Assembly: GCA_964618995.1 (NCBI GenBank)
Contig: CAZUBQ010000004.1
Span: 14,601-78,600 of the forward strand
Length of the DNA stretch: 64,000 nt
Direction of reading: 5' to 3'
Source of the DNA: an uncultured Candidatus Poseidoniales archaeon
GTDB lineage: Archaea > Thermoplasmatota > Poseidoniia > Poseidoniales > Thalassarchaeaceae
Below are positions 827 to 55,996 of this stretch, in pieces. Position 1 is the stretch's first letter. The number at the start of each line of letters is the position of its first letter. The position numbers were made by a program, and so were the translations under genes. The notes under the pieces are model-generated. The model was not told where the DNA came from and searched no databases. It was given only the letters and a program-made list of their open reading frames with translations.

Positions 827-3800
827 TCAATGATTCTCCCGCACCCAGTCGCGCAGTTGATTGATGTCCCATCCTTGATCGAAGTAACCCTGAATGGTCG
901 CCTCGTCCCAGAACGAGAACTCATCGAGCGCTTGTTGCATCTCCAGGCTCTGACTCGGTGGACCGCTGACTGGAGGACCGCCTCCGCCATATCCTGGCGG
1001 AGTGGAGGACCCAGTGCCCTCGTATCCAACCGCCTCGCGGCCTTGGTATCCCGGCGGACCGCGGCTGATAGGCTCCACGGCTTCACCAAGAGGCAGGTAG
1101 TCCTCGTCCTCAAGGAAGAAATCATCGTCTTCCTCGCGGCGCCGTCCGAGCACCATCAGCACGACCACCACCAGCGCGATGAGGATGAGCACACCGGCGG
1201 CTATCCCCCCAATCACCCACAGATCCATGCCTTCTGCGCCGCTGCTGCCAGCAGCGCGGACGTGGAACTGTTCTGACTCACTGAGCAGGTTGCCATCGGA
1301 ATCATAGATAGTGAATATGACACCGTTGAGCGGCTGCGGGAACGGATCGACGGGCACGCGGCAGAGGTCCTGCATGTTCGGCTGCCAGGTGATACCGCAG
1401 TCATGAGTGAAATTTCCCTGCTGAGTGCCGTTGATGACAATGAACACCTCAAGCGACAACTGGCCGGCCTCGGTGCCCACGTTGGTCACCTGTAGCAGGA
1501 TATCGAATGCAGACATTGCCTCAGGCTGCCCGGTCGAGAGATCGACTCGGTCAATGCGGAATTCAGCCTGCTTGAACACCAGATCGTATTGCCCACCCTC
1601 GAGCGATACCCCAAACGTCCCGCCGGTCACCGGGTTCACCTGGTTACCCGCCGAATCCTCACCGGTCACCCAGAAACGGATATCCACGCCGGCAAGTTCC
1701 TTGGGGAGGGTGTGTCCCTCCCAAAGATCCACGCAATGCATGTTCACCTTGTTCGATTGAAGGTCGATGTTAGCTGTGCGAGTCTGCCACGGTTCTGGGA
1801 AGGTCGTGCGATATGACGACCAGTTGAAGTTGTCCTGGAAGAACATCCAGTTGATGGACATGGAGTCGCTGTTTAGCCTCTGCAGTTCGTCGACGGTGAA
1901 TTCGATGTCCACACAACCGATTGACGAAGATGGCAGCAGTTCCTCGATCAGTTCACCGGTGATACCCGAGCGCATCTTCCAAGAACCCCAGATGACCGAG
2001 GGGGCATCGTCGTCCACCTTGGCGTAGAAGGTGCGGTCCACCTCGGGAGAGAAGTCTGTGGCACCCTCGGGGATGTCGTCAATAGAGAACACGTAGCGAT
2101 ACTCGTTCGTGGCCAGTGCAGCCGAGATGAGCAACTCGAATGTGCCGTTCTCGAACTGGTACTCTTCGGTCTGCGTGCTGGACGCGACATAACCGAGGCT
2201 GGACTCGCCGCCCGGGTAAATTGGTGTGCGGGTGACCTTCAGGGTCATTGGAATCTGTGGCTTGACATCGATGCCCGCCTCCAGTGCGTCCTTGAAGCGA
2301 TATGAGCCTTTGAGCAGCAGCAGGTCACCGGGCCTGGTGTATCCTCCGTCCTGAGCACCGATTGAGGAAGTGATGAATCCAGAGGTGTCCTCGAGTGAGA
2401 ATGAGGCCAAGTCGAACTTCATCCCGCTTGAGTAAATCCAACGCTGTTTGTAGCGACTGGCCGACAACTTGCTCTCCTGGTTATCCGGGTCGAGATCCTT
2501 CATGTAGACATCCGGCTCAACCACGCCACCGACAGTCGGCACGCTCCAATGGAGGCGAATCGGCATGTTGAGTTGGAACTCGGTCTCGAACGGATCGATG
2601 AGTACGGTCCCGTCGGCCTTGGTCAACCGCGTACCCACACCGTCGTTGGTGACGTTGAGGATGTCCACCCACTGGCTGTCGGTCCACGCAGAGCCGTTGC
2701 GCGGTGAGAACCAGAGCACCATGTCGTTGGTGACGTACGGGTTCAGGTCAATCTTGATGTAATCAAGATCGCGCCAGCCGTTGTCGTCCTTGCCATCGAC
2801 GAGCAGGTGGTAGACGTTACCTGCGTACATCGACTTGTTGAACTCTGTTAGTGGGTTGTTGTATGCATCCGAGATGTGCAGTGAGTAAACACCCGGAGCA
2901 CGCGAATCGAGGCCGATGTAGGTAATCAGATCGTTCGCGAATCCGGCTGCGCCACCATTGATGGCGTTGCCACCGATATCTGTGCCGACCACGAACAGAC
3001 TTGTGCGCGGGGCGGTATCTCCCTCTGGAATGTTCAGTCCGGTCTGCTGGTCGTCGAGGCAGTCATTGTGCGGTGGACAGATCGGGTTGTCCAGTTCGTA
3101 GGTGGTATTGCCGAAGGCGTCGACGAATATCGGCACAAGACTGACTGTGCGATACTCGATGGGCTCAGGAATACGGTTGTCGTTGTCATCGTGCTGCGCC
3201 TCGACCCAGTGATAGAGCAGCAGTTCGTCCGGGGCTTGAGGGAAATCGCGTGCAACGACTCGGAACTTCTGATTCGACGCCGGCGGAATCCAAGTATCGT
3301 CTGTGAGTTCGCGCCATTCGGATATCATGTCCCAGACGCTGATATTCACCAACACGGGCGCGTACGTGTCGATGTTCAGAACGATGCGGATGGCGCAGTC
3401 GGAATCGGGATTGTACTGTGCTGGCGGACAGAGGGTGTCTCCGCCGCTGTAGTCAGCGATGCGCAGGCGGTAGGTGTCGGTGCCGGCGGCGGTTGCAGCG
3501 ATGGTAGGCTGCCATTCAAAGTCACCTCCGATGATGCTCGCCAATCTGTCGACCTCAATCCAATGGCTGAAGTTCGACTGATTCTGTAACTCGAACACGA
3601 GGTTGTAATCCGCTGGGTCGGGCGACTCGGCGAGGTTCTCGAAGCGGACCGAACCATTGAGCGTGATTACCTGACTGCTGGAGGCGTTGGTCAGGTCAGG
3701 TTGCAGGATTCCGCCCTGATTGTAGAGATCGAGTCGCTGGATGAGCGCGTCGTTCTCGACCGCGTTTCCAACCGCCGGGTTGAGCATCAGCGCAGCGGGG

Positions 3801-6652: not shown

Positions 6653-6738
6653 TGTCATCATCCCATAAACCGCTACGCGGTTCAGCGTACGCAGCCTCAT
6701 TTCGCATTTAACCCCGTTGGGCTTGCGCCCAACCCTCG

Positions 6739-35485: not shown

Positions 35486-36499
35486 ATGGGTGACGTTGAG
35501 AAGCCGGAATCCTGGCTGCCACATCTAGTCGGCCTCATCCTACCTCTAGCGATAATCTCAGGTAACCTTCTGGGTGGCTGGTTCACTCTCGGAGGTATCG
35601 TACTCGGTCTCGGCGTCTATCCGATTCTCGATGTCCTGCTGGGAACTGCAAAGCAACGCGGCGGGATTCCGACCAACGGACAACCGTTCGAACTCATCCT
35701 ATTGTTGGGCTCTCTGCTTCCATTCATCGCGCTGGGGACACTGTTCCATCGCGCCCTGTTGGATGGTTCAGTGTGGACCACTTGGACCGCTGCCCTATCC
35801 ACCGGCATAGCTACTGGACAAGGAATCATCGTTGCCCACGAATTGGGACACCGCAAGCCGAAGAGCGCTCGTTGGTGGCTGGCGCGGGTTCTGCTGTTCA
35901 GCGTTCACTATACGCACTTCACCACCGAACACAATCACAACCACCACCGTAACACCGCCATCCACGATATTGATCCGGCCAGTGCACCCTACCACCGTGG
36001 CCTGTGGGTGCAGATTGCAAGAACCGTGCCATTGCAGTTCATCTCGGCGTTCAAAATCAATCAGGAGCGCGGCAAGAAAGGTGTGCGCAATCCCGTGCTG
36101 CAGGGGTTATTTCTGCAGGTAATCGCAATCATAGCCGTTTGGCAATTGTTCGGTCAATGGGTCGCATTGGCATGGCTGGTGGCGGCGGCGTTCGCCATCA
36201 CCCTGCTCGAATTCGTGAACTACATCCGCCACTGGGGGCTCAGAAGAGAAGCAGGTGAACGACAGACGTACATGCACTCATGGCAGACTGAGGCTCGCTG
36301 GTCACGCTGGACCCTGCTTGAGCTCACCATCCACCCTGCGCATCATGTGAAGGCGAGCCTGCCGTTCTGGCAACTACGACCCTACGAAGATGCACCGACT
36401 CTCCCCGCTGGCTACTACGCCTGCTTCTGGCCCTGTGTCATACCCCCACTATGGAGACGCTGGGTCGGCAAGGGCATCCCTGCCGACCAACGAGTCTGA
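35486..36499 (+). CDS. AlkB-type integral-membrane diiron hydroxylase (alkane-1-monooxygenase / fatty-acid desaturase superfamily).
   Basis: Four His boxes in AlkB order: HELGHRK, EHNHNHH, NYIRHWGL, HPAHH. Multiple TM helices. Confidence 0.75.
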   Translation: MGDVEKPESWLPHLVGLILPLAIISGNLLGGWFTLGGIVLGLGVYPILDVLLGTAKQRGGIPTNGQPFELILLLGSLLPFIALGTLFHRALLDGSVWTTWTAALSTGIATGQGIIVAHELGHRKPKSARWWLARVLLFSVHYTHFTTEHNHNHHRNTAIHDIDPASAPYHRGLWVQIARTVPLQFISAFKINQERGKKGVRNPVLQGLFLQVIAIIAVWQLFGQWVALAWLVAAAFAITLLEFVNYIRHWGLRREAGERQTYMHSWQTEARWSRWTLLELTIHPAHHVKASLPFWQLRPYEDAPTLPAGYYACFWPCVIPPLWRRWVGKGIPADQRV

Positions 36500-36507
36500 C
36501 GTGTCGA

Positions 36508-36942
36508 TCAATTGAGGTCGACCGTAGCCGTGAGCGCGGCAATCTCCATGCGGGAGTGTCTGTCTGCTATGCCCACCTCTGCAGAGATGGAGAAAACACC
36601 GCTGTTGTTGCTCACGCTGATGCCCGTGAGCACAATCTCGACGCCACGGTGCTCTCCGTGGCGCATCAGGTCGTCCGCGGCGGACAGGGCGGCGGCTTCG
36701 CAAGCCGCATCCCAGTCATTGCCCGCGGCGACCAGGCCGGAGGTGCGGTTCTCTACCAGCGGCTGCCACACAGTGATCACATCGCTGCTTGTGTCCAGCA
36801 CATCACGGCTGCCCGTGTCGTAAGGCTCGCCGAGCCCAGCGACAGAGACGCCGTACCATGCCATAGACAGCAGTGAGAGCATCAACACGAGGCCACTGGC
36901 CAACAGCATCTGGCCCACATCTCTGCGATCATTCGAACGCAT
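36508..36942 (-). CDS. Pilin-like protein with a class-III (type IV prepilin-like) signal peptide.
   Basis: MRSNDRRDVGQ|MLLASGLVLMLSLLSMAWYGV has a short charged leader then a hydrophobic helix. The start overlaps the upstream stop in a TGATG arrangement. It is the last gene of the pilus operon. Confidence 0.45.
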   Translation of the reverse strand: MRSNDRRDVGQMLLASGLVLMLSLLSMAWYGVSVAGLGEPYDTGSRDVLDTSSDVITVWQPLVENRTSGLVAAGNDWDAACEAAALSAADDLMRHGEHRGVEIVLTGISVSNNSGVFSISAEVGIADRHSRMEIAALTATVDLN

Positions 36943-37418
36943 CAGGAACCACCTCCGGCGTGCCACACCTGCAGGCTGACCGTCCACACGACACCTTGGT
37001 CATGTACGAGTTCATGCACGCTGAGTGTACGTCCCAGAGGAGTACTTCCCCCTCCGTAGCGTGCCAACGGACCTCCGTCACGGGCAACCCAGCAGTTGCC
37101 AAGTACAGTAGATGGCAGCGAGGAGAGGAGTTCATTGCAGGCCACATCGAGGTCGCCTGCAGCGAGCAGTTCACCCATGCGACCTGTATGATTGGCGGAA
37201 TCGACGGCTGCGGGAGCGATTACCTGCACGAGCGCGTCCTCAGCGGCGAATTGGAGAGATGCGTCAGAGGCGGGTGAGACCGGGTCAGGAACCTGCAGCT
37301 GGATGATGAATGTGGCGGACATGAAGAACAGCCAGAAGAGCGTCAGCATCTCCAGCACGTGCACCTGTGCACACGCGTCCGAGCGAATACTTCGCTGATT
37401 GAAACCTTCGGCCTTCAT
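36942..37418 (-). CDS. Hypothetical membrane-anchored protein, possibly a pilin-like subunit of the Tad/Epd-type pilus.
   Basis: N-terminal charged segment (MKAEGFNQRSIRSD) followed by a hydrophobic helix (VHVLEMLTLFWLFFMSATFII). Lies 12 nt downstream of the TadC-like gene. Confidence 0.4.
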   Translation of the reverse strand: MKAEGFNQRSIRSDACAQVHVLEMLTLFWLFFMSATFIIQLQVPDPVSPASDASLQFAAEDALVQVIAPAAVDSANHTGRMGELLAAGDLDVACNELLSSLPSTVLGNCWVARDGGPLARYGGGSTPLGRTLSVHELVHDQGVVWTVSLQVWHAGGGS

Positions 37419-37430
37419 CTAATCACCTCG

Positions 37431-39005
37431 TTAGGTGACGATGAACGGAGCCAGTCCGGGGTTCAGGCCATCGTCGAGCGGGACCCCGATGAGGTCGGGG
37501 GAGAAGCATACCACGTTGAATGCCAGAATGGCAGAGATGAGCATCAGCCCAGCGTGCTTGCATCCGCTAGACAGTCTTCCAGTCGCCATCAGACCGGCCA
37601 TGATACCGTTGCCGAGCGCCTGCGCGCTCACCCCGTAGAAGAACACCACGAGGAAGAACAGTGGGTCTATGGCACGGATGACCATGTTGCCGATCTGGGC
37701 GCTCTCCTCACCGCTGTTAGACGAGGAAATCGCAGGGATGAACACCTTGGATAGCACGACAATGACGCCGAGGAACACGAAGAACGAGGTCCAGATGACC
37801 GCGATGTACGACGCAATCGCTCGCTCGCGCTCCAGTTCGAGGAACTTGATCTCGCGACTGTCGTTGGCGGCGGTCACGAGGATGTCGGAGATCTTTCCAC
37901 CGGCCTTGTTCGCCTCGTGGATGAGGCTGATAGCCCGTGTCACGAGCGGCGTTCCCACCCTATCTGCGAACATGTCGAGCACGTCCGCGAACGCCACGTC
38001 CCACGACAACTGGTCGGACATCTTGCCCACCTCGTGGTTCAACGCCCCGTACTCTGAGGTGGCTAACGTTCTCACCGCCAGCGTCATCGACAAACCACCC
38101 TTCCAGAACTCCGCCAGATCACGCAGGAAGTCCGGGAACTTCTGTTCCACCGCAGACAGTACCTTCATCTGCCGATCCCAGTAGATCGCTCCGGGGAATA
38201 CGATGAGCAGGAACCCATATCCGAAGAAGTTCACGAACAGGAAGGGACGCAACTCCAACGGCCCTAGATTCACCTCTGGCCCGATGAACAGCGAGGCGTT
38301 GTTCATGTAATTCGGGATGCCGTCGTACGAGTCGACCTCGATGGTCAACAAGAACGACTTCATGGGGGGCAGGCCGCGATCGAACTGCACATGCACCTCC
38401 CATCCTTCAGCGGTCTTCGCATCGGGTATCACGATGCTGCACGGATTAGCAGGGTCGCTCTCGGTAGGCTCCCAGTTTGTCACACTCTGCACTGTGAAGG
38501 GGTTGGTCGGTATACCAGCGTCGTTCGGCTCCCATATCGTAACGCTGTATGCGTAAGATTCGGAGGCTATCGCGGTGCAGGACATACGTAACTCCGTCTC
38601 AGGATGAGATAGAGTCCCCAGTCGATTAGGGTCCATCCCAGGTACGGAGAACTCCTGGCCCAGGCCCGGACCCTTCACACCCGGCCAATCGATAGCCCAT
38701 GTCTGAGTGCGTGGGCGCTCCTTCGTCAACCAGCAGGATTCGTTATCCGCGTAGTCTGGCGCAAGGTTGCTGTCGAATCCTTGCGCACCCGACATGCTGC
38801 AGAATTTGTTCACGAACAACGGATTGCCGTTGGTCGGTTGAAAGATGAGGTCGGTGTTCATCGCCCAGAATCCAAGGCAGAGCATGCCGATAAGGGAACT
38901 CGTGAGGGTAATCGCCCAGAAGATCGAGCCGGTGTTGTCGTCCTTCGGCAGTTCAAGGTCGACGCGGATCTTCTGCTTCTTTCTGCGCCCCCTTCTGCGT
39001 GCCAT
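37431..39005 (-). CDS. TadB/TadC (T2SS-F / FlaJ) family pilus platform protein with a large inserted soluble domain.
   Basis: T2SS-F-type helices (C-terminal LAVRTLATSEYGALNHEVGKMSDQLSWDVAFADVLDMFADRVGTPLVTRAISL) and a ~250-aa loop insert. Confidence 0.7.
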   Translation of the reverse strand: MARRRGRRKKQKIRVDLELPKDDNTGSIFWAITLTSSLIGMLCLGFWAMNTDLIFQPTNGNPLFVNKFCSMSGAQGFDSNLAPDYADNESCWLTKERPRTQTWAIDWPGVKGPGLGQEFSVPGMDPNRLGTLSHPETELRMSCTAIASESYAYSVTIWEPNDAGIPTNPFTVQSVTNWEPTESDPANPCSIVIPDAKTAEGWEVHVQFDRGLPPMKSFLLTIEVDSYDGIPNYMNNASLFIGPEVNLGPLELRPFLFVNFFGYGFLLIVFPGAIYWDRQMKVLSAVEQKFPDFLRDLAEFWKGGLSMTLAVRTLATSEYGALNHEVGKMSDQLSWDVAFADVLDMFADRVGTPLVTRAISLIHEANKAGGKISDILVTAANDSREIKFLELERERAIASYIAVIWTSFFVFLGVIVVLSKVFIPAISSSNSGEESAQIGNMVIRAIDPLFFLVVFFYGVSAQALGNGIMAGLMATGRLSSGCKHAGLMLISAILAFNVVCFSPDLIGVPLDDGLNPGLAPFIVT

Positions 39006-39028
39006 TCGGTTTCACCTCCTTCGCGTTT

Positions 39029-40150
39029 TCACATCTTCATCTCGTCGCTCATCATCCAAACGAGGATTCCGTAGGCGATGTGGATGACGGGCAGCACCCC
39101 CATCACCACGATGTAGACCATGTTCTCGGACAACTGGGCGCCGGATCCGGACACCCAGAACATGATGACGAGCATCACGATGAGGAACAATGGCATGGCG
39201 ACGGCGACCACGACGTAGGACTCCGCCATCATGGCGAGGGTCTCAAGGAAGACATGCAGCCTCACCCGGTTCTCGCGCATGTAGTGCTCGGCTCGGTTGA
39301 GGAAGTAGAGCTTCAGGTTGCCGCCCGAGGTGAGTGTGCCCACCATGCCTTGGAAGAACTCAGTCACCCACGGAGATGCCGCTCGGTCAACAGCCAGTTT
39401 CAATGCCGTTACCAGGTCCATGCCCAGCAACGAGACGTCACGATAGATCATCGAGGAGTCATGGGCGATGTCTCCGTAGATGTGCTCGTTCTGGGCAAGT
39501 GACCTGAAAATCCGGTCAGGCGTTGAGTTGGCGGCTGCCATGGCTGCCGTGTATGATGCCACGTACGGAAGATACTTCTCCAACTCGTAGCCGCGCTTGT
39601 TCTTCTCGCGAAGGGCGCTGTTCATGAAATGACGGTAGGCCATGAAAGGTATCAGCAGGCCACAGGAGAGAACCAATATCACCTTCCACGATTCTTGGAA
39701 CACCTTGGTCTCGTACTCCGGGCAACCGCCGTACGCTACAGTCTCTCCATCAGGACCTTCACCGCTCCAATCTATCGTTTCATCTACAGCTTCCTCGTTC
39801 CAGAACGCCCACTCGATGCACGGGATGACCGTTTCGGGGTTCTGCTGGTTCTCGAAGATGGCGATGCCTCCAATGAGTGGGAAGAACGCCAGAACGAGGA
39901 TGCCGATGCATACGATGAATGTTGCAATCGTACTCATGATCGACGAGGCCTTGTAGACCTCGGGCATGATGCGGATGTTAGCCTGTGACAGCAGTTGCTT
40001 GATCTCTCTGTCGTCGCGCGCCTTCTTGCGTATCAGGCGACCGAGAATGATGTTCGAGAAGCGCTGCCATCCTGACAGCGTCATCCCCTCGAAGCGAACC
40101 TTTTCCTCCTGCTCCTTCTTTGCCACTCGCGCTCCCCCTCGATACCTCAC
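39029..40150 (-). CDS. TadC/FlaJ-family (T2SS-F domain) pilus assembly membrane protein.
   Basis: YLPYVASYTAAMAAANSTPDRIFRSLAQNEHIYGDIAHDSSMIYRDVSLLGMDLVTALKLAVDRAASP is a T2SS-F domain signature. Overlaps the ATPase gene by 4 nt. Confidence 0.75.
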   Translation of the reverse strand: MRYRGGARVAKKEQEEKVRFEGMTLSGWQRFSNIILGRLIRKKARDDREIKQLLSQANIRIMPEVYKASSIMSTIATFIVCIGILVLAFFPLIGGIAIFENQQNPETVIPCIEWAFWNEEAVDETIDWSGEGPDGETVAYGGCPEYETKVFQESWKVILVLSCGLLIPFMAYRHFMNSALREKNKRGYELEKYLPYVASYTAAMAAANSTPDRIFRSLAQNEHIYGDIAHDSSMIYRDVSLLGMDLVTALKLAVDRAASPWVTEFFQGMVGTLTSGGNLKLYFLNRAEHYMRENRVRLHVFLETLAMMAESYVVVAVAMPLFLIVMLVIMFWVSGSGAQLSENMVYIVVMGVLPVIHIAYGILVWMMSDEMKM

Positions 40151-41682
40151 TGGAGGCCGTCGACACGAGCGAGGACAGCCTGCGGTCGGACGTAGTACTC
40201 CGTGATTATCTGGGCGACTTGATCCGATTTGCGGATGTCGTTGAGTACCATCCAGTCGAGGATACGCTTGCGCGTGCGCAACTCGTTGCGCATCTCATCC
40301 TGGTCCATGTTGATCTTCACCATGATCTTCTCAAGCACGTAGGACTTACCGCTGAAGTCGTAGTCGTCGCGGCCCGGGTCCCACTTGAACACCTCATTGG
40401 TGATTACCTCATCAGTGTGAGGGTCCACTCCGACGATCTCGACGGTCTGCTTGGTGCGGCGCACGCGCCGTCCGTTGATACGCGTCTGCATCTGGATTGA
40501 CACCGCCTCGAGCGCCGGGAGCAGCACGCGCGGGATGTCAATCGGTTTGTTCTCCAGCCTGTGCACGAGCGCAGCGACCGAGTCGGCGTGAACAGTCGAA
40601 TAGGAACAGTGACCGGTGGCCATCGCCTGGAACAGCACGTACGCCTCCACTCCACGAATCTCACCCACGATGATGTACTCCGGCCGCTCTCGCAGCGCAG
40701 CCTTCAGCAACTCGAACTCTCCGATTTCACCCTCGTCGGACTCACCACCGAATCCCTGCCGCGTCAGACCGGGGATCCAGTTGGGTTGTGGGATGTTAAT
40801 CTCACGCGTCGACTCGATGCTGACAATCTTCATCTGCCACGGAATGAACAGGCTCATCGCGTTCAGTGTGGTGGTCTTGCCGGACGCCGTTCCACCGACG
40901 AACAGCATCGAGATGCCCTGCTGGAAACATATCCACATGTAGGCGACCATCAGGCTGGTCATCGTGCGGAAGGCGATGATGTCGCACGGCGAGAACGGGT
41001 CCTCACGGAAGCGCCTGATACAGAATGTCGAGCCGCGTGTGGAGATCTCATGGCCGAGTTTCATCACGATGCGGCTGCCGTCCATCAGCGTGGCGTCCAG
41101 CAGCGGTTCAGCAACGGAGATGTGCTTGCCGCAGCGCTGGGCGAGCTTGATGACATAGGATTCCAATTCGGCGTCGTCAGGCCAAGCGATGGTCGTCTCG
41201 GTCGACTCGAATTTGCGGTGGTAGGCGAAGATGGGGATGCCTGTGCCGTCGAGTGAGATGTCCTCCACGTTGGCGTCGTTCATCAGCACGTCCATGCGGC
41301 CGTAGCCAATCAGGTCACGCTTCAAGTAGTAAAATATCTTTGAGCGGGACTTCTTGTTCACCCGCATGGAATACGACTTGATAATCTGGTCCATGGCGGC
41401 GCGCAGGTAAGCCACTGGGTCTGTTTCAATCTCAGCGATGTCGGCGGTCAGCGAACGGACGAAGATGTCGAGAATCTCCTCGAACTGCTCCTGCTCCTTC
41501 TTCGTCAGTGGGGGCTCGATAACCTGGTAGAGGATGTTCAATGTGCGCAAATCACGGACGATTCGTGCGAAGGCGTGTGGAGGCATGACCGGATATTTGT
41601 CCAGTTCCTCGTACTGCTGACGCTGCTGCTGACGCCGACGCCGTTGACGCTGGGGTCGTCCGCGCTTCTTCTTTCTAGCCAT
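40147..41682 (-). CDS. FlaI/TadA/VirB11-family type IV pilus (archaeal) assembly ATPase.
   Basis: LFVGGTASGKTTTLNAMSLFIP (Walker A), EIRGVEAYVLFQAMATGH (His box) and a FlaI-like C-terminal extension. The basic low-complexity N-terminus suggests the true start may lie further downstream (e.g. MPPHAF). Confidence 0.85.
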   Translation of the reverse strand: MARKKKRGRPQRQRRRRQQQRQQYEELDKYPVMPPHAFARIVRDLRTLNILYQVIEPPLTKKEQEQFEEILDIFVRSLTADIAEIETDPVAYLRAAMDQIIKSYSMRVNKKSRSKIFYYLKRDLIGYGRMDVLMNDANVEDISLDGTGIPIFAYHRKFESTETTIAWPDDAELESYVIKLAQRCGKHISVAEPLLDATLMDGSRIVMKLGHEISTRGSTFCIRRFREDPFSPCDIIAFRTMTSLMVAYMWICFQQGISMLFVGGTASGKTTTLNAMSLFIPWQMKIVSIESTREINIPQPNWIPGLTRQGFGGESDEGEIGEFELLKAALRERPEYIIVGEIRGVEAYVLFQAMATGHCSYSTVHADSVAALVHRLENKPIDIPRVLLPALEAVSIQMQTRINGRRVRRTKQTVEIVGVDPHTDEVITNEVFKWDPGRDDYDFSGKSYVLEKIMVKINMDQDEMRNELRTRKRILDWMVLNDIRKSDQVAQIITEYYVRPQAVLARVDGLQ

Positions 41683-41727
41683 TGATATGCCCCCGGCTCA
41701 GCGTGTTGCTCACCCTTTCCACGTCGC

Positions 41728-41744
41728 TATAACCTTTGGTTATA
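41728..41744. promoter_or_regulatory. Perfect dyad TATAACC-TTT-GGTTATA, 46-62 nt upstream of the pilus ATPase start. Candidate TATA/BRE element or operator.
   Basis: Palindrome seen directly. Its core AACCTTTGGTT recurs at 21824-21834. Confidence 0.35.
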
Positions 41745-41786
41745 GGAAGAAGGGGGACGCTGACATAGATGACAACCGCATCCCAG

Positions 41787-43409
41787 TCAGTTCTCGAACG
41801 CCGCCCGGCCCCATCTGCGCCCTAGCATGAACTGGAAGGCGAGCCCGAGAATCGTGATCGCCCCGCTCACCAGAAGAATGCCCTTCAGCCCACGGGCAGG
41901 GTCTGGATTGTCGTCCACCTCGATCAGTACCGCCGTCGTGGCGTTCAATCCCTGTTCGCGAACCTGGTCCCCCCAGTTCTCGTAGATGGCCATATCACCC
42001 TGCGTGAACGAGAGCAAGAACAAGCCGAGCAGGGGGACGATGGTACCTAGGTAGAACCAGCCCATGATTGAGACATCGAAGATTGCCTTGTTTGGACGCA
42101 GCCCCATCAGGAAGGCGGTCAGGCTGACGATGTAGATCGAGTTCGCCAGCATCACGATGAGCGCTGCGGGCAGCGCCCAAACCTGATCGAGCATCACCCC
42201 CATGGTAATCAGGAACAACACCGAGATCCACGTCGTGATGAGGAAGTAGACGACCACTTTGGCGCGCAGCAACTGTGGCACCGAGACAGGCAGACCATTG
42301 AGGAAGTCGGGTGGATCCATTCCGTTCAGCCAGGAATAGAACTGGAATCCGAAGAATCCGAGGAACGGGGCGTACGACAGCAGGTTGAACGGGATGGGGA
42401 AGGCTGCGAAGTCGACGAGCCAAGCCAGCAGTAGGAGGAACAGCAGCGGTACGGTGAACGAGACGAGCATCTTCACTAGTGTGCGACTGCGCCACAGGTC
42501 CACCAGATCCTTGGCGACGAGGATGCGCAGGGTCCCGTTGCCGAGGAACGGCAATCGCCCATGGATAGGTCCGTAGAGCTCCCTCTTCGACGACACGTGC
42601 ACCTCGAAATCAGCCGGAACGAGATGAGAGCCGGCGAACGCCAGCCCGAACGCCACCGGGAAGGCGATCAGAGGAATCCAGTGCGCGTGGGTGAACTGGT
42701 AGTGCATTCCAAGAATCAGCATCTGCATGGGCAGCACATCCAGAGCGAACAGCAGCGCGATGCCGATACCGAGTGCCGGCATGGTCCAGGTCCAGTGACC
42801 ACCGCGGCTGAACACCGCCGAGGCGAGGAAAGAGATAGCAAGCCCTTCAGACAAGGTTGCAGCCAGAGCGATGAATACCACCGGCAGAGAAGCCCATTCG
42901 AGTGGGGTGGACAACCCAGAGTATGACTCGAGCAGGATTCCCATCGCCATGCCGACGATCGTGGGGATCAGCAGTAGGAGGATGTAGTAGCAGACCTCTT
43001 TGACATAGTAGGCGAAGTAGTTGGTTGCGAGGTCAAGCGGTTGCATCGCCGGTGATGCCAGAAGGTAATTCTTGCCACCGGCACGCTGGGACACCATCAC
43101 TCGACCGATGAATGCGAACGAGCCCATCGAAAGTGCGAACATGAACATCCCTGCGTGCAAGAAGAACTTGAGCTGGTCCCAAGAGAACGCCTGCTGTTCG
43201 GAATTCGGGTCGATGAGCACCTCGCCGGTGAGGAAACGCAAGCCTACTGTGAGGATGAGTGAGAACAGTGTCAGCATCACTGGGAACATCAGGATGTTTC
43301 GCCGCTTGGCGAAGTCGGCGTTCTGCCGCCACTCCTCGCGGAACATCATCCGGAAAGTGACACCGAACGCCTCTTGCAGTGCAGGGGGTTCCCTGTTCCC
43401 GAACCCCAT
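41787..43409 (-). CDS. ABC-2-type transporter permease, large (about 12 TM).
   Basis: Polytopic membrane protein located immediately downstream of an ABC ATPase gene. Confidence 0.6.
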   Translation of the reverse strand: MGFGNREPPALQEAFGVTFRMMFREEWRQNADFAKRRNILMFPVMLTLFSLILTVGLRFLTGEVLIDPNSEQQAFSWDQLKFFLHAGMFMFALSMGSFAFIGRVMVSQRAGGKNYLLASPAMQPLDLATNYFAYYVKEVCYYILLLLIPTIVGMAMGILLESYSGLSTPLEWASLPVVFIALAATLSEGLAISFLASAVFSRGGHWTWTMPALGIGIALLFALDVLPMQMLILGMHYQFTHAHWIPLIAFPVAFGLAFAGSHLVPADFEVHVSSKRELYGPIHGRLPFLGNGTLRILVAKDLVDLWRSRTLVKMLVSFTVPLLFLLLLAWLVDFAAFPIPFNLLSYAPFLGFFGFQFYSWLNGMDPPDFLNGLPVSVPQLLRAKVVVYFLITTWISVLFLITMGVMLDQVWALPAALIVMLANSIYIVSLTAFLMGLRPNKAIFDVSIMGWFYLGTIVPLLGLFLLSFTQGDMAIYENWGDQVREQGLNATTAVLIEVDDNPDPARGLKGILLVSGAITILGLAFQFMLGRRWGRAAFEN

Positions 43410-43415
43410 GGCGGC

Positions 43416-44198
43416 TCACTCCTCTTCGTCTGGAGAACTATCGGCAACCGCTTCGACCTCGGCTACTGATGCCCCGACCAAGCGGATGAACACGTCTTCT
43501 AGGCTCTCGTCCTGAGTCTCTTTCAATTCATCAATCGACCCCGAGGCCAGCACATGCCCATGGTCGATTACCGCCACCCTAGTGCACAGTCGCTCGGCCA
43601 CTTCGAGAATGTGCGTACATAGGAAAATCGTGCCACCATCAACAATCATCTCCATCAGCAGTTCGCGGCACTTGCGTTGATAGATTGGATCGAGGTTGAC
43701 GAACGGCTCGTCAAGGAAGAGCAACTTCGGTTCGTGGATGAGCGCTCCAGCGAGCATCACCTTCTGTCGCTGCCCCTTCGAGAGATCCTTGCACATCGAG
43801 TCACTCTTGTCGTTGATGCCGAACCAATCGAGCCAATGTCGCACTTTTCCATCCACGTCGTCAAGGCCGCGCAGACGGGCGACGAATTCGAGGTACTCAG
43901 CCGCTGTGAGGTATGATGGAGGGGACTCCGATTCTGGAACGATTCCGACGTTGGCCTTCACCTTGCGCGCGCCCTTGCGCACGTCGACGCCGAGTACCCT
44001 AGCCCCGCCAACAGTCGGCTGCAACTGTCCAGTGAGGAGCTTGATGAAGGTCGATTTCCCCGCCCCGTTGGGTCCGAAAACACCGAAGAACTCCCCGGAG
44101 GCGACCTTGACGTTCAGTGGATGCAGGGCGACGAAATCGCCGAACGCCTTGCCGAGGTCGCGCGCTTCGACGAGCAGCCCGTCCTCCTCATCACTCAA
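43416..44198 (-). CDS. ABC transporter ATP-binding protein.
   Basis: GVFGPNGAGKSTFIKLL (Walker A), LSKGQRQKVMLAGAL (ABC signature), LLFLDEPFVNLD (Walker B). Confidence 0.9.
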   Translation of the reverse strand: MSDEEDGLLVEARDLGKAFGDFVALHPLNVKVASGEFFGVFGPNGAGKSTFIKLLTGQLQPTVGGARVLGVDVRKGARKVKANVGIVPESESPPSYLTAAEYLEFVARLRGLDDVDGKVRHWLDWFGINDKSDSMCKDLSKGQRQKVMLAGALIHEPKLLFLDEPFVNLDPIYQRKCRELLMEMIVDGGTIFLCTHILEVAERLCTRVAVIDHGHVLASGSIDELKETQDESLEDVFIRLVGASVAEVEAVADSSPDEEE

Positions 44199-44257: not shown

Positions 44258-45115
44258 TCAGTTGCCGGTCCATTCGGGGTCTGAGCGGTCGAGGAATGCC
44301 TGAACACCAATCTCCTTGTCCTCGGTGTCGAACAGAGCGCAGAACTCGTCCCGCTCGAAACTCATACCCTCTGAGAGAGGGAGTTCGAGCGCGGCGCGCA
44401 CCGCCCGTTTGGCGACGCGGATGGTATGCGGCGACTTACTGGCTAGATTGCGGGCAATCGTCATCGTCACCTCTTCCAATTGCTCGGGTGGAAGCACGTA
44501 GTTGGCAAGCCCAACGCGGTGGGCTTCTGTCGCTGGCATCAGTTCGCCGGACATCACCATCTCCAGCGCCTTGCCGTAACCTACCAGGCGAGCAAGTCGT
44601 TGAGTGGCTCCACCACCTGGAATCAGCCCGAGGTTGATCTCGGGCGTTCCGAACATCGAGCGTGTGCTGGCGAGGATGATATCACATGAGAGCGCAAGTT
44701 CGCAGCCACCCCCGAGTGCGAACCCGTCGACCATGGAGATCGTCGGCTTGCTGATGTTCCACACAGCCGCCCACGGATCCGCCTTGAACGCCTTGCGAAT
44801 CTGCTTGCTGTCCACGCCTACGAACTCGCTGATATCCGCTCCGGCCACGAATGCTGGGGGCATGCCGCGCTCACCCTCTTCCGCTGTCGGTGGAGGAGCA
44901 CCGCGGATGATGACCACTCGCACGGAGTCGTTCTTCTCCACATCTTTCGCGGCGGCGATGATGGCGTCATTGACCTCGGAGTTGAGCGCGTTCAACTTGT
45001 CCGGCCGATTGATCGTCCAGATGGCGATGTCCGGGCCGTCTTCTGTATCGGCGTCGAGCGGAACGTGTTGCACGACAAGCACTGCATCGTCGCCCATGTC
45101 AACAACCTCGGTCAA
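44258..45115 (-). CDS. Enoyl-CoA hydratase (crotonase family).
   Basis: FVAGADISEF...MVDGFALGGGCELALSCDIILAS...PEINLGLIPGGGATQRL. Confidence 0.85.
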   Translation of the reverse strand: MTEVVDMGDDAVLVVQHVPLDADTEDGPDIAIWTINRPDKLNALNSEVNDAIIAAAKDVEKNDSVRVVIIRGAPPPTAEEGERGMPPAFVAGADISEFVGVDSKQIRKAFKADPWAAVWNISKPTISMVDGFALGGGCELALSCDIILASTRSMFGTPEINLGLIPGGGATQRLARLVGYGKALEMVMSGELMPATEAHRVGLANYVLPPEQLEEVTMTIARNLASKSPHTIRVAKRAVRAALELPLSEGMSFERDEFCALFDTEDKEIGVQAFLDRSDPEWTGN

Positions 45116-46014
45116 TCACCAATCTCGTCACGCATCTCATCCAACTTCGATTGTGCACCGGTCGGCGGTGGCGGCAACGGGAGACCATCCGGTGGTGGTG
45201 GCAGGTCGGGAAGTGCTTCCTCCTCATCCTCTTGCTCCGAGGCGGACACATAACCCTCGTCAAGCGGCACACGCACCTTGAGCACGCGCGCATCGTCCAG
45301 GCGAACGTAAGTCGCTCCATAGGGGTGCCCGGGCGCAACCTTCTCCGGCTCATCGAGCACCTCGAGGCCATGTCCCGGTCGGCTCAGCAGCGCCAGCAAA
45401 TCCTCACCATCGTCATGCTTGGCCCACATGCGGGCAGCTGAAGCTCGGATGTCCGCCAGTTGGCCGCGGCGACGCTTCTCGATTCTATCTTTGATTGCCG
45501 CCCGCTTGTCCCGTCGATCATCGATGAACTCCTCGATGTCGGCCTCTTCGAGCGTCTGCGCGTCGAGGTCAACGACATATTCCTCGGCAACGTGAATCTC
45601 GTCTTCGATGGCTTCCTCGTCGAGAACGACCACCTCATCCTCGTCCTCTTCTTCAGCGGAATCTTCGGCTGATTCGGCCTTCGCCAACTTGCGCCCTCTC
45701 CGTGTGCCTGCATCCTCCTCCTCGACCACCGGTTCGGGAACATCGATGCTGACGCTGGCAGCAGTTTCAGTTGCGGAAGTGGATGAGCGCGAGCGCCTCG
45801 AGCGCGCCCGTCTGCGGCTTTTCCTCTTCCCTCCGGTGAACAGCACGAGGCTGAACAGGACGAGAAGTCCAGCGGCGAACGCGATGTTGATGCGCGGGTC
45901 CTCCCATTCGCCGCTCATCATCAGGTAGAGGCCGGCACCAAGTACCAACGCCAACACCAGCAGCACACGGCCGAATGAAACCACGCTGACCTCTCCGGCG
46001 GATTGCAACTCCAC
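45112..46014 (-). CDS. Hypothetical N-terminally membrane-anchored, highly acidic protein.
   Basis: Two N-terminal TM helices, then a basic RRRARSRRSRS stretch and long Glu/Asp-rich tracts. No recognised domain. Confidence 0.45.
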   Translation of the reverse strand: MELQSAGEVSVVSFGRVLLVLALVLGAGLYLMMSGEWEDPRINIAFAAGLLVLFSLVLFTGGKRKSRRRARSRRSRSSTSATETAASVSIDVPEPVVEEEDAGTRRGRKLAKAESAEDSAEEEDEDEVVVLDEEAIEDEIHVAEEYVVDLDAQTLEEADIEEFIDDRRDKRAAIKDRIEKRRRGQLADIRASAARMWAKHDDGEDLLALLSRPGHGLEVLDEPEKVAPGHPYGATYVRLDDARVLKVRVPLDEGYVSASEQEDEEEALPDLPPPPDGLPLPPPPTGAQSKLDEMRDEIGD

Positions 46015-52819: not shown

Positions 52820-55800
52820 TCATTCACCGCCCCAGCGGTCTTCCATGTCGTCTGTTCTCCGTAGAGCGATTCCGAGCCCGACGGCACCACCCAGGAGCAA
52901 CAGGCCGACGAGCACCAGAATGACCAGCGTGCTCGATGAGAACTCGAGGAACTCCTTGCCGGGATCGGTCAGGATGTTCGTCTCTGGCTCGGTGAGCATC
53001 ACCTCGACGCGCACTACCGGATCAGTGGCCGCCACGAACAGATCGACTCCGCGGAACTGCAGTTCTACGGGGCTGCCGGTCGGTAGGCCCTCGCGTACCT
53101 GCACCTCGATGGAATAGACTCCGTCGTCGGCGACAGCATCTGCTCCTTGGCCGTTGTCGGTCATCAACTGCCAATTCAGATCCTGACCTATGGGAGCGAG
53201 TGACATCAGCCGCGTCTGGACAGCGGAAACTCCGTCAGGGTCTTGCACCGCGACCGTGATCACATAGACCGAGGAACCTGAGCCTGTGTCCGGGACCACG
53301 ATCTCGGTTACAGCTGCGCCATCCTTGTAGAGAGTGAACTCGCTGATCGCCGGCCCTTCGTTGAGGATGTGCAGCCAAGGAACGGGGGAGGTCACCACTT
53401 CAGAGGAATCGGGGTCAGGAATGGCCGAACTGGCTACCCATTGACCATCGACATGGACCACTTGACGCGTCGCCCATGCGCCGGCACCGTCCTCGAGGTA
53501 GACCGTCAGCCGCAGGTCACCCGGCACCAGCGATGTGGGAATCTGCACCGTTCCTGACCATGAGTTGCCGCCATCGTCCGAAAGGTCAACGAGAGAGCCA
53601 CCCTCAGAGCGGAAGTCGACGGCCGTCCGTGCCACACCTAAGGCATCCCAAGCCTGGATGCTGACAGTGAGGTTCTCACCGCGGTGGACCGAATCGGTGG
53701 ACATCTGGAAGTCTGTCATTCGTGGTGCGCGGTGCGTCACCAGCAGTGTTGCTGTGGAATCGGTTGTAGAGGTGAACGAGTCGGTGACGGTCACCGGTGT
53801 GGACAGGTTACCCGCATCGGTTCCGGTGTAGACGAACGAGCCAGTGTAGATGTCGTCGTGGACGATCGAATCTCCGTCGAGCCCGATGTCATTCAGGTCG
53901 AGCGTGCCGAGGCCCATCGACGAGAGGTCGACGCTGACCGTGCGCACGTTCCAGTCAGGGTCGGAGATGACCGCCTCGACGTGCACGAGTCGGCCTCCTT
54001 CGTTGACCACACTCCCCTCCTGCAAACGGAAGTCGCCGATTTGTGGCGGCGTGTTCTCCGACTCGCTGATGATCGCCGGTGAGATGACTCGCTCGAGCGA
54101 CTGCACTTCGGTGAAGTTCAGCAGTTCGTCGACACCGATGTCGATACTGACTTCGCGCTGCACCTCTGCGATGAGCCCAGCGAGGATTCCGTTGTTGACC
54201 ACAGAACCCGAGGCGGTGCCCACACCACTGTATGTGCCGTTCCAGGTGGTGACCTGCATCAAATGCCCATCACGCGTGAACGTGTCGTATCCGTCGGCCA
54301 CTAGATCGAGCCACATCAGGTCGCTAGCATACAGGGAGAGCGAATCTCCCGGCAACATTTCGGTGGGCGCGAACCCAGCTTCTCGACTGATGTTCACATC
54401 TCCGAGCATGCTCTCGTCAGGGGTGTCATTCTGGGGAGTTGGGGCGATGGGGGAGTCCGGTGGCCATTCCTCACCCTGACTAGGGTCGTCGGACTGCTCG
54501 TCCCAGCGGAAGCGGATGGTGCGATTGGTGTAATTGTCGTAGACCACTTCGTAGTCGTGTGTCTCGTTGTAGTAGGCGCCCACGCCGAGATCACCCAGCA
54601 CACCTCCCCCAGTGATGTTGTACCACACCTCCTGATGAATCAGGTTGATCGGCCACAACACTCCGGTGTCGTTCGCCGTCTCACCTGTGCTCTGAATGCC
54701 GCGCAAGATACCAAAACTCCCACTGGTAGCTCCTGAGATATCGCCATCCAGATGGATGCTGTCAGCGGTCTTGTTGCCGTTCTGGCTCTCGAAGAAGAAC
54801 TCGATTATGTCCCCTGAAATCACGATTGACCCGTTTTCGTCATTGGTATCGCTGAACAGGAAGGAACCATCGCCGAGGAAGCGACTGAACTGGCTCACCA
54901 TGGTCCCGTTCTCTGTTCGTTCTCTGCTGATGAGTTGGTCAAGGTCGAAATCCAGGTATCCCTCATCTGTCTGAGTGTGCATCTGGGCAGTCGCTTCGAA
55001 CTCGATGTTGTTGAGCACGCGCTCACCGCCGACATCCTCGGTCTCCACCAGCAGAAGAGAAAGAGAGCCGTTGATCCACGTCTCCTCATCCCCATCCTGC
55101 GTAGAGATGTTCAGCATCCCATTCGCCTCGAGACGAATCGCCTCTGAAACTATGCCATCAGCGAGCGAGCGAGTGATGTACGAGTCGACGACATTGGCGG
55201 TTATCACCGTATTATCTCCTTCGTCATCCGTGTTCAGGACGAGGTTTCCTGCCCCGGCCATCTCAAACATCTGGCTGTCCAGTTCGGCGCCGACCATCGT
55301 CTCGTTGAGCCATATGCGAGTCAACTGCAGCGTGATCACCATGTTCGTGTCATCGGCAGTCTCGTTGATGACCAGCGTGCCAGTCCCGAGTTCATTGTGT
55401 TCGAGAATCTGGGCTGTGCGCTTCTGCCAACCCTGACCAGCGAAGTCGAGTTCGTAACTCTCCGAATCGCTCCCATCGGCAATCGAGTGCTCCAACTCCC
55501 ACTGCGTGGCGACCGTTACCTCGTGGTCCGCCAACGGTTGGTTCCACAGAGTCGCTACGACGGTTCTCGTCGCGGATGGAACCGAACCTTGGTCCATCCA
55601 CACTTCAACATCGACGGAATCAGCGAACGAGAGATTGGTTGGGACTACCACACGGTAGTGGGTGGAGTCTATCGGGTCGAGAGAGTTGTTCTCATCGCCC
55701 CAGAGATAAGTCCAGGATCCTAAAGCAGTCCCGTTCACATCAGAGTGAGTGACGTTCACCAACCAGTCGCTCGGGTCCGGAGCGGAACTGAATTCGATGA

Positions 55801-55996
55801 CGTAGCCGTGTTCAGCATGGTCATCACCGTCATCGTCAACCCAATCCACGTGGATGGTGATGTCAGGGAGTGATTGCCCCTGTGCAATCACAAGGGGTCC
55901 AGTGCTGACTCCGAGCATCAACAGAAGAACAAGCGTAGGCAGTAATCGAGAGGATTCTCTCACCATGGAGGTTGATGCGTTCGGTTCCCTCATCAA
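52820..55996 (-). CDS. Large (~1050 aa) secreted cell-surface protein with an N-terminal signal peptide and a C-terminal TM anchor.
   Basis: LLPTLVLLLMLGVSTGPLVIAQG signal peptide. C-terminal LVILVLVGLLLLGGAVGLGIALRRTDD. Asp/Thr/Asn-rich extracellular region. Confidence 0.75.
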   Translation of the reverse strand: MMREPNASTSMVRESSRLLPTLVLLLMLGVSTGPLVIAQGQSLPDITIHVDWVDDDGDDHAEHGYVIEFSSAPDPSDWLVNVTHSDVNGTALGSWTYLWGDENNSLDPIDSTHYRVVVPTNLSFADSVDVEVWMDQGSVPSATRTVVATLWNQPLADHEVTVATQWELEHSIADGSDSESYELDFAGQGWQKRTAQILEHNELGTGTLVINETADDTNMVITLQLTRIWLNETMVGAELDSQMFEMAGAGNLVLNTDDEGDNTVITANVVDSYITRSLADGIVSEAIRLEANGMLNISTQDGDEETWINGSLSLLLVETEDVGGERVLNNIEFEATAQMHTQTDEGYLDFDLDQLISRERTENGTMVSQFSRFLGDGSFLFSDTNDENGSIVISGDIIEFFFESQNGNKTADSIHLDGDISGATSGSFGILRGIQSTGETANDTGVLWPINLIHQEVWYNITGGGVLGDLGVGAYYNETHDYEVVYDNYTNRTIRFRWDEQSDDPSQGEEWPPDSPIAPTPQNDTPDESMLGDVNISREAGFAPTEMLPGDSLSLYASDLMWLDLVADGYDTFTRDGHLMQVTTWNGTYSGVGTASGSVVNNGILAGLIAEVQREVSIDIGVDELLNFTEVQSLERVISPAIISESENTPPQIGDFRLQEGSVVNEGGRLVHVEAVISDPDWNVRTVSVDLSSMGLGTLDLNDIGLDGDSIVHDDIYTGSFVYTGTDAGNLSTPVTVTDSFTSTTDSTATLLVTHRAPRMTDFQMSTDSVHRGENLTVSIQAWDALGVARTAVDFRSEGGSLVDLSDDGGNSWSGTVQIPTSLVPGDLRLTVYLEDGAGAWATRQVVHVDGQWVASSAIPDPDSSEVVTSPVPWLHILNEGPAISEFTLYKDGAAVTEIVVPDTGSGSSVYVITVAVQDPDGVSAVQTRLMSLAPIGQDLNWQLMTDNGQGADAVADDGVYSIEVQVREGLPTGSPVELQFRGVDLFVAATDPVVRVEVMLTEPETNILTDPGKEFLEFSSSTLVILVLVGLLLLGGAVGLGIALRRTDDMEDRWGGE

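Follow-up and report, generated by a model that had tools for sequence, protein, structure and literature searches.

A five-gene type IV pilus-like assembly operon conserved across the Poseidoniales and its probable affinity with the euryarchaeal clade 2 systems

Among the described type IV filament systems of archaea, the closest to the locus analyzed here are the PilB3-C3 system of Haloferax volcanii and, especially, the systems of the PilB4-C4 type (Makarova et al. 2016; Sivabalasarma & Albers 2026, preprint). In the euryarchaeal clade 2 (System 2; PilB3/PilB4/PilB5-type) systems, an ATPase of the PilB3_N/C type is followed by the platform protein PilC, which is sometimes split into two tadC-like genes, and, downstream, by proteins of the DUF7288 and then the DUF7261 family with AQxHxLE and AQM(L/F)L N-termini, respectively. 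Two tadC-like genes are found in many clade 2 loci, and archaeal ATPase/TadC modules can use pilins encoded in trans, pilB3-C3 of H. volcanii being an example (Makarova 2016, PMC4858521). The Epd locus of Methanococcus maripaludis has the order platform, platform, ATPase, and the bacterial Tad loci have the order tadA, tadB (similar to the C-terminal half of a platform protein), tadC (similar to the N-terminal half) (Denise 2019, PMC6668835). The window, by which the whole analyzed stretch of 64,000 nucleotides (nt) of contig CAZUBQ010000004.1 from an uncultured member of the Poseidoniales (marine group II, MGII) is meant, contains five consecutive minus-strand genes, denoted here ATPase, F1, F2, small A and small B (Table 1). 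These genes probably represent the core module of a clade 2 type IV filament machine that was reduced to five genes and became fixed in the core genome of the Poseidoniales.

The five open reading frames (ORFs) described in the earlier note on this DNA were reproduced at the same coordinates by an ORF listing, and the ATPase and T2SS-F identities proposed there agree with the T2SSE and T2SSF matches in a Pfam search. Species-representative genomes were scanned, with 584 confirmed matches, and the best 80 loci, spanning the Poseidoniaceae and Thalassarchaeaceae, were kept and compared with the window proteins using tblastn, the gene block being scored where a locus holds enough sequence. The order ATPase, F1, F2, small A, small B is preserved in every sufficiently sequenced locus of both families. 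Given this conservation of the block in all informative loci, the five ORFs are true genes rather than chance ORFs, and a five-gene type IV pilus-like assembly operon is present in essentially every Poseidoniales archaeon examined. Identity to the respective window protein among the 80 loci is 79-91% for the ATPase, 52-68% for F1, about 47-75%, over full-length matches, for F2, 38-64% for small A and 36-59% for small B. The best matches of the ATPase (80-96% identical) all come from Poseidoniales assemblies where the source is named; a look-up of its exact sequence returned no record. In public records, the orthologues of the ATPase go under 'FlaI' or 'secretion system protein E', whereas those of the small proteins are entered as 'hypothetical'. 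What the analysis establishes directly is the gene content, the identity of the domains, the split topology of the platform, the orthology of the small proteins to clade 2 accessory families, the conservation across MGII, the lineage-specific inserts and the conserved promoter.

Small A and small B are joined by a TGATG stop/start, as previously noticed, and GGAGGTG-like Shine-Dalgarno sequences precede F2 (GGAGGTGA), small A and small B. A 4-nt overlap between the ATPase and the first platform gene, which had also been proposed, rests on the GTG at 40150 that opens the longest ORF. The closest orthologues of F1 start with MAKK, which aligns with the window GTG at 40126 (VAKK), preceded by GAGGGGGAG, and this GTG, 20 nt after the ATPase stop, is probably the true start.

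The ATPase contains intact Walker A (GGTASGKTT) and Walker B (EYIIVGEIRG) motifs. Its score against the NCBIfam FlaI equivalog NF058587 is 400 bits, with a cut-off of 550, and that against the TadA model TIGR03819 is 133 bits, with a cut-off of 373. Among proteins in the PDB, it is most similar to GspE of Archaeoglobus fulgidus (afGspE; 398 bits), followed by FlaI of Sulfolobus acidocaldarius (275 bits) and CpaF (127 bits). The Pfam family PilB3_C matches 11, and PilB3_N 3, of the 13 ATPase orthologues and relatives searched, and a precomputed PF23990 assignment is attached to many of the orthologues. As judged from these similarities, the ATPase is likely to be of the non-archaellum, euryarchaeal clade 2 or PilB3-like type. 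It is 511 amino acids (aa) long compared to 662-989 aa in relatives that carry Zn ribbons or long extensions, the MGII protein having lost these terminal extensions.

The two platform genes each encode a single T2SSF domain, in place of one FlaJ, as the earlier note had recognized. In NCBIfam searches, the ArlJ/FlaJ match of F1 lies in the N-terminal half (positions 48-241 of 555) and that of F2 in the C-terminal half (222-453 of 465 and 315-536 of 555 in two models). Since F1 maps to the N-half and F2 to the C-half, the two proteins can be considered the products of a fissioned platform protein in its natural N-to-C order, and the order ATPase, N-half, C-half is collinear with an unsplit pilB-pilC operon. 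Many of the non-MGII matches of F2 among 1.84 billion cluster representatives are unsplit proteins of about 600 aa that align in their C-terminal halves.

Both halves carry sequence specific to MGII. In F2, an insert of about 200 aa (somewhat smaller than the previously estimated ~250-aa soluble insert) separates the first and second transmembrane (TM) segments, whereas the F2 proteins of the Thermoplasmatota relatives, 299-320 aa long, lack it. The TM1-TM2 loop of F1 is about 55 aa longer than that in the Thermoplasmatota relative L081 (L-numbers denote the compared loci); the relatives are 292 aa long with a 4-aa loop. The additional loop of F1 contains two cysteines, C111 and C143, that are 100% conserved among the MGII orthologues, and in the F2 insert C69 and C91 are 99% conserved, C143 80% and C189 89%. 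Both regions are predicted to be extracytoplasmic. A HMMER search of the cluster representatives detected no homologue of the F2 insert outside MGII, all other matches being confined to residues about 240-500 of F2, and the insert shows no match in Pfam or to PDB sequences. Neither sequence nor profile searches of the PDB gave a meaningful match for F1, F2 or the two small proteins. The cysteine-bearing extracytoplasmic sequence is a lineage-specific addition of MGII to both platform halves.

Several features resemble the archaellum core: the ATPase reaches 400 bits with the FlaI model, both platform halves can be aligned with FlaJ and there are two small bitopic proteins reminiscent of FlaF and FlaG. 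Nevertheless, FlaH, FlaB and FlaC/D/E are not encoded in the MGII locus, the ATPase and the platform proteins score below the equivalog cut-offs (400 vs 550 and 55 vs 550 bits; for all the ArlJ models, at most 55 bits vs 400-570), and none of the 80 loci is flanked by fla accessory genes. The view that the system is not an archaellum, already expressed in the earlier note, thus holds, and an archaellum remnant was rejected on the basis of the equivalog cut-offs and the gene context.

The nearest relatives of the ATPase outside MGII (60-62% identical) come from other Thermoplasmatota. The gene order in their loci is two pilin-like proteins of about 370 aa, DUF7266, the ATPase, two T2SSF proteins (292 and 299 aa), a 172-aa protein, a 206-aa protein and adhesin-like proteins. 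The ~370-aa proteins have classical archaeal pilin-like N-termini, with a marginal Pfam match to Pilin_N (E 0.07); the ATPase combines PilB3_N, T2SSE and Zn ribbons; and the adhesin-like proteins (1324 and 626 aa) contain CARDB/CarboxypepD_reg domains. A locus on a Halobaculum megaplasmid encodes a Pilin_N pilin, a PilB of 989 aa with PilB3_N/C, an unsplit PilC of 679 aa, DUF7287, DUF7288, a protein with a weak DUF7261 match, DUF7266 and DUF7289. Compared to these clade 2 systems, the MGII locus comprises five genes only, without Pilin_N pilins, DUF7266, DUF7287, DUF7289 or large adhesins, and differs in the short ATPase and the inserts in both platform halves. Relative to its relatives, it has lost the canonical pilins, DUF7266 and the giant adhesins. 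In two of the loci compared, the CARDB/CarboxypepD_reg proteins (L081, 14946-18920; L082, 13050-17336) end in cytoplasmic zinc ribbons that follow a TM segment; the zinc ribbons shared by these adhesins and the C-termini of the cognate ATPases may reflect a lineage-specific coupling of adhesin and motor.

The earlier note had compared the locus to the Epd pilus and to the bacterial Tad systems, that is, to a clade 1 (System 1) adhesion pilus. The likeness consists in the two single-T2SSF platform genes that are found in both and, with Epd, in the general character of a non-archaellum, adhesion-type machine. The Tad layout, namely, ATPase, two half-platform genes and two small pseudopilin-like genes, is shared as well, and the working of the two systems is probably similar, an ATPase acting on a heterodimeric platform, with assembly primed by minor pilins. 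TadE and TadF follow the platform genes in Tad loci, which also counts in favor of this affiliation. However, a split platform is not a signature of Epd because clade 2 loci often have two tadC-like genes, and the gene order differs from both systems: the platform genes precede the ATPase in Epd and follow it here, and in Tad the C-half-like tadB precedes the N-half-like tadC, whereas the N-half comes first in MGII. Furthermore, the low TadA score, the much greater similarity of the ATPase to afGspE than to CpaF, the PilB3-type domains of its orthologues and relatives, and accessory genes that come from the families of the haloarchaeal PilB3-domain locus (DUF7288/7262 and DUF7261) all argue otherwise. 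The Epd system has a dedicated 9-TM EppA peptidase and major pilins of about 70 aa without a globular domain in an 11-gene cluster, none of which is seen here, and Flp, TadV, TadZ and a secretin are absent from the MGII locus, which gave no Pfam match to TadE and encodes no short (~70 aa) pilin, EppA or TadZ/FlaH-like ATPase. Altogether, an Epd- or Tad-like identity appears most improbable, and the locus is better viewed, with reasonable rather than full confidence, as a reduced relative of the clade 2 systems.

A further link to clade 2 comes from the two small proteins. The N-terminus of small A is nearly invariant over 71 orthologues, [D/E/N/S]-[A/G]-Q-[V/I]-H-[I/V]-L-E-M-L-T-L-F-W-L-F-F-M...V-P-D, and the C-terminal domain contains two conserved cysteines along with conserved tryptophans. 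In small B, the conserved motif is [A/G]-Q-M-L-L-A-T-G-V-V-L-L-M-S-L-L-S-M. In both, the leader that precedes [A/G]-Q is short (7-17 aa), charged and variable. The two proteins had been described as having a charged leader and a hydrophobic helix, and these prepilin-like N-termini are indeed conserved; for small B, given the [A/G]-Q-M-L-L motif, a canonical class III cleavage would fall at G|Q rather than at the proposed Q|M. The counterparts in the Thermoplasmatota loci start with KAQMQVIEIIT and RAQVQVMEIIT (small A) and with KAQLLLVT and EGQLFLLTG (small B), and those of Halobaculum with MRAQAHTLEGLIAG in the DUF7288 protein (small A) and ERAQMFLIGG in the weak DUF7261 match (small B). A charged residue occupies position -2 in Halobaculum and in three of the four Thermoplasmatota versions examined (RAQ, KAQ, EGQ). 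Haloarchaeal archaellins are cut at RG|Q.

Profile comparisons point in the same direction. In Pfam searches, DUF7262 matches 7 of 42 small A orthologues (best E value 1.5e-4) and DUF7261 matches 30 of 55 small B orthologues (best 3e-4), with all scores of the window proteins below the gathering cut-offs. When the MGII profiles were compared with the L081 counterparts using hhalign, small A gave E 4.7e-5 over 127 columns and small B E 3.1e-5 over 130 columns; the L081 counterparts themselves match DUF7288 (4e-4) and DUF7261 (28.3 bits, cut-off 27), respectively. The hhalign links to single Halobaculum proteins are weak (E 0.008 for small A and 0.001 for small B), those to the Thermoplasmatota intermediates being stronger. 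Both families, DUF7288/7262 and DUF7261, occur in haloarchaeal and Thermoplasmatota loci of the PilB3/PilB4 type. Small A and small B show no detectable relation to each other by hhalign (probability 0.3%), and, in profile searches of a set of 5.8 billion proteins, the top 120 matches listed for them are unannotated MGII orthologues only. Because the counterparts, the motifs and the profile links recur in the relatives, the A-then-B pair after the platform can be considered an ancient feature of this system type.

Several observations weigh against the identification of the locus as a clade 2 filament machine. The window ATPase itself is sub-threshold for PilB3_C in Pfam (E = 0.028), and the assignment to clade 2 is drawn from Pfam domains, gene order and accessory families. 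For the clade 2 systems with this accessory set, the literature demonstrates neither a filament nor a function, and it yielded no direct information on DUF7261, DUF7262, DUF7266, the clade of afGspE or a prepilin peptidase of MGII. A strict FlaFind-type pattern ([KRDE][GA][ALIFQMVED][ILMVTAS]x3 close to the N-terminus and then a hydrophobic stretch), applied as a regular expression in place of the FlaFind program, matches none of 71 small A proteins, in which the histidine at +3 breaks it, and 20 of 72 small B proteins; both window copies (..DACAQVHVLE in small A and ..RDVGQMLLAS in small B) fail it. The earlier note had held that its pilus reading would suffer if the small proteins lacked class III signal peptides and the ATPase grouped with archaellum FlaI: the small proteins do fail the strict pattern, but the ATPase does not qualify as an archaellum FlaI. 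AlphaFold 2 models built from the database matches (mean predicted confidence, pLDDT, 80 for small A and 73 for small B) consist of a TM helix, a low-confidence linker and two or three helices on a three- to four-stranded sheet, that is, an alpha+beta domain, and Foldseek comparison of these models to the PDB yielded nothing at E<0.01, only generic alpha/beta matches. Archaeal pilins typically have an immunoglobulin (Ig)-like beta-sandwich. In addition, no N-terminus with the FlaFind pattern was found in the 64-kb window and none of the Pilin_N type, that of the canonical class III pilins (arCOG02911-type) of clade 2 systems, in the window or in the 1.2 Mb that flank the 80 loci. A Pfam scan of 16 window proteins detected no Peptidase_A24; this set takes in the multi-TM ORFs except for the platform proteins and the permease next to the locus (namely, DUF4870, GT2, FA_desaturase and PAP2 proteins), in agreement with the earlier statement that the window encodes no prepilin peptidase.

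These results bear on the role of small A and small B, which could be unprocessed, membrane-anchored partners of the platform that link the motor to the envelope, similarly to FlaF/FlaG or PilN/PilO, with the filament subunits encoded elsewhere. The failure of the strict pattern and the globular alpha+beta domains, unlike the expected Ig-like pilin sandwich and without a pilin match in the PDB, fit such a role. The TM helix of small A is nearly invariant (Q, H, E, M, T, L, F, W, F, F), as would be expected of specific intramembrane contacts, although genuine pilins, too, are most conserved in their N-terminal helix. Moreover, of the accessory genes only these two were kept when all canonical pilins were lost from the locus. 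On the other side, the [A/G]-Q before the hydrophobic helix is kept from Halobacteria to MGII, with a charged -2 residue in most of the relatives, a combination that looks like a class III site, and the short, charged, length-variable leaders resemble those of class III signal peptides; the relaxed features of a prepilin, namely, a charged leader, A or G at -1, Q at +1 and a TM helix, are all preserved in the orthologues. With these considerations, unprocessed partners are an unlikely but serious alternative, and processed minor pilins are the more likely identity of small A and small B, if not by a wide margin.

Under the clade 2 interpretation, a hexameric PilB-like ATPase at the cytoplasmic face would drive a membrane platform formed as a heterodimer of F1 (N-half) and F2 (C-half), the two pieces of a fissioned PilC. 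Small A and small B, as universally retained clade 2 pilin-like proteins with charged leaders, an [A/G]-Q junction and a hydrophobic helix, would most likely be processed and extracted from the membrane as low-abundance minor pilins that prime the filament or form its base; less likely, they would be its sole subunits. The major pilin, if any, and the class III peptidase would be encoded elsewhere, as is the case for H. volcanii pilB3-C3. The disulfide-capable extracytoplasmic domains on both platform halves of MGII probably replace accessory or envelope-contacting parts that were lost from the locus. The operon would be transcribed from a BRE/TATA (transcription factor B recognition element and TATA box) promoter of its own; each of the four downstream genes is preceded by a Shine-Dalgarno sequence. 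It is processing, filament formation and function that we infer here, with adhesion as the default guess for the latter.

The locus represents a second type IV filament module in MGII, found in every informative locus of both families. MGII are uncultured and yet among the most abundant planktonic archaea. The MGII literature searched discusses only flagella and at most notes extra flaJ, flaI and tadC genes (PMC6864105), and none of the papers in the literature searched pairs MGII with type IV pili. Attachment to particles or phytoplankton has been discussed only via the archaellum operon, which many MGIIb lack: it is present in only half of the MGIIb genera (PMC6461757), whereas the pilus locus is present throughout the MGIIb loci. 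If the assignment is correct, this would be the smallest natural version of a clade 2 (PilB4-type) system, with the DUF7288/7262-like and DUF7261-like genes as the indispensable accessory components, which would narrow the targets for tests in the tractable relative H. volcanii. A bolder possibility, which seems rather improbable at this point, is that the MGII machine is minimal in the strict sense, with the two non-canonical pilin-like proteins as its only dedicated exported subunits and with a platform that bears a disulfide-bonded extracellular domain of about 200 aa. In that case, the platform itself, not accessory proteins, would contact the envelope or the substrate, a new architectural solution in the type IV filament superfamily, and the locus would supply what has long been sought in the archaea most abundant in the surface ocean, a device for attachment or surface display, also in those lineages that have no archaella.

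Table 1. Coordinates in the window of the pilus-like operon, its predicted promoter region and the adjacent transporter genes
Feature	Position	Strand	Properties
ATPase, PilB/FlaI family	40147-41682	-	511 aa; Pfam T2SSE 1.5e-27
F1, platform N-half	39029-40126 (longest ORF to 40150)	-	~365 aa (373 aa for the longest ORF); Pfam T2SSF 5e-12
F2, platform C-half	37431-39005	-	524 aa; Pfam T2SSF 4.5e-11
F2 insert	38241-38858	-	residues about 50-255, TM1-TM2 loop
Small A	36942-37418	-	158 aa; no Pfam family at E<=0.1
Small B	36508-36942	-	144 aa (start ATG 36942); DUF7261 E=0.011
Predicted promoter region, BRE/TATA and inverted repeat	41727-41744	-	upstream of the ATPase gene
ABC permease	41787-43409	-	12 TM segments; no Pfam match
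ABC ATPase, DrrA-like	43416-44198	-	TIGR01188 drrA 221 bits, cut-off 312

The region upstream of the ATPase gene contains a sequence, TATAACCTTTGGTTATA (41728-41744), that had been reported as a perfect palindrome. It is instead a 7+3+7 inverted repeat with 7-nt arms, a non-symmetric TTT/AAA center and three mismatches to its own reverse complement; it occurs once in the window, with 0 occurrences expected by chance. In an alignment of the 110 nt 5' of the ATPase start across the Poseidoniales loci, most of the 80 loci share a conserved element, (C)AACCAAAGGTTATAG, about 45-65 nt before the ATPase ATG, with CACCCAAGTGTTATAG and GCGAAAGGTCATAAC among its variants. This element is predicted to be a BRE/TATA box, the TATA box of the window being TTATAG (41732-41727), about 47 nt 5' of the ATPase ATG, with a predicted transcription start at about 41704. 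The gene-proximal arm of the window repeat coincides with the BRE/TATA element, whose spacing to the ATG is kept in most of the 80 loci, and the distal arm, TATAACC, is not conserved, being replaced by GGCAACC, TTCACC and similar sequences elsewhere. A scan for sigma-70 promoters and intrinsic terminators gave background levels, these models not being applicable to archaea.

Several lineages have palindromes of their own just upstream of the conserved TATA, longer than the window repeat and with a 3-nt center. One, AGGGAACC-TAT-GGTTCCCT, is located about 50-70 nt 5' of the ATPase ATG in L003, L006, L007, L008, L011 and L072. Another, GAGAGGGCCC-GTA-GGGCC(C/T)CTCAC, lies upstream of the TATA in L023, L025, L026, L031, L038, L040-L042, L046, L075 and L079, and a third, AGAACCC-TAC-GGGTTCT, directly upstream of the TATA of the pilus operon in L001. 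These palindromes could be operators for a dimeric regulator or a structure at the 3' end of the transcript of the adjacent permease gene.

Directly upstream of the pilus ATPase gene, on the same strand, the window encodes a DrrA-like ATP-binding cassette (ABC) ATPase and a 12-TM permease. The presence of this pair and its strand agree with the earlier description, but the label 'ABC-2' is drawn only from the partner ATPase of the permease, which has no Pfam match of its own, and this ATPase is below the TIGR01188 cut-off (Table 1). The pair adjoins the pilus genes in most of the 80 loci; in L024 it is inverted, and in L017, L018 and L021 a kinase-like gene and a gene for a 2150-aa, repeat-rich surface protein lie between the permease and the pilus ATPase. 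The surface protein, encoded directly upstream of the pilus ATPase in this one MGII lineage (L018, 1379-7831, and also L017 and L021), combines a Sec-like signal with thrombospondin-type-3-like DxDGDG repeats and a TM anchor at the C-terminus. With the exception of these four loci, the neighbors in the informative loci are the ABC genes, an enoyl-CoA hydratase and kinase-like genes, and the genes for the ABC ATPase, the permease, the enoyl-CoA hydratase and an acidic membrane protein, together with a gene that, from its sequence, we take to be HAM1-like, are syntenic upstream in most loci. Outside MGII, in the Thermoplasmatota and Halobaculum loci, the ABC genes are not adjacent. Because the pilus genes have their own promoter, cotranscription with the ABC pair is not required, and the proposed coregulation is not supported, in view of the conserved BRE/TATA element of the pilus operon and an adjacency that is broken in some lineages.

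A further alternative is that the locus encodes a machine other than a pilus, such as a short pseudopilus or piston for secretion or surface display, similar to the type II secretion system or to the bindosome and perhaps coupled to the ABC exporter. A minimal gene set with no major pilin nearby and a platform with a novel extracytoplasmic domain would be compatible with such a function, as would the ABC pair next to most MGII loci and the giant adhesin-like proteins that adjoin the system in the Thermoplasmatota relatives and in some MGII lineages. However, a separate promoter precedes the pilus operon; the ABC pair is set apart from it or inverted in some lineages and is not adjacent outside MGII; and the synteny extends to unrelated housekeeping genes (enoyl-CoA hydratase, HAM1-like), so that adjacency carries little functional weight. 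The giant proteins of the window have signal peptides of the Sec type, not class III, and the ABC ATPase is of the DrrA exporter type, not of the bindosome importer type. Secretion or display as the main function thus appears very unlikely, and a bindosome-like system was rejected given the exporter-type ABC and the separate promoters.

Some other genes of the window deserve mention. The gene at 35486-36499 (plus strand), convergent to small B, encodes a His-box membrane protein of the AlkB/fatty-acid desaturase type (Pfam FA_desaturase, 1.5e-26). Of the 80 related loci, only L002, where it adjoins small B, and L044, where it lies elsewhere in the locus, contain a homologue, and in most other loci a P-loop kinase-like gene directly follows small B. 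The FA_desaturase gene has the appearance of a lineage-variable insertion and might correspond to the alkane 1-monooxygenase trait that Rinke et al. list for some MGII. The minus-strand gene at 45112-46014 encodes a 300-aa protein with two N-terminal TM helices and a very acidic, low-complexity tail, with only a weak match to DUF6338; in most Poseidoniales loci it keeps its place upstream of the ABC pair. Finally, two giant minus-strand ORFs, 827-6700 (1957 aa) and 52820-55996 (1058 aa), start with signal peptides of the Sec type and gave no Pfam match at E<=0.01; these are presumably surface proteins of MGII that are not adjacent to the pilus locus.

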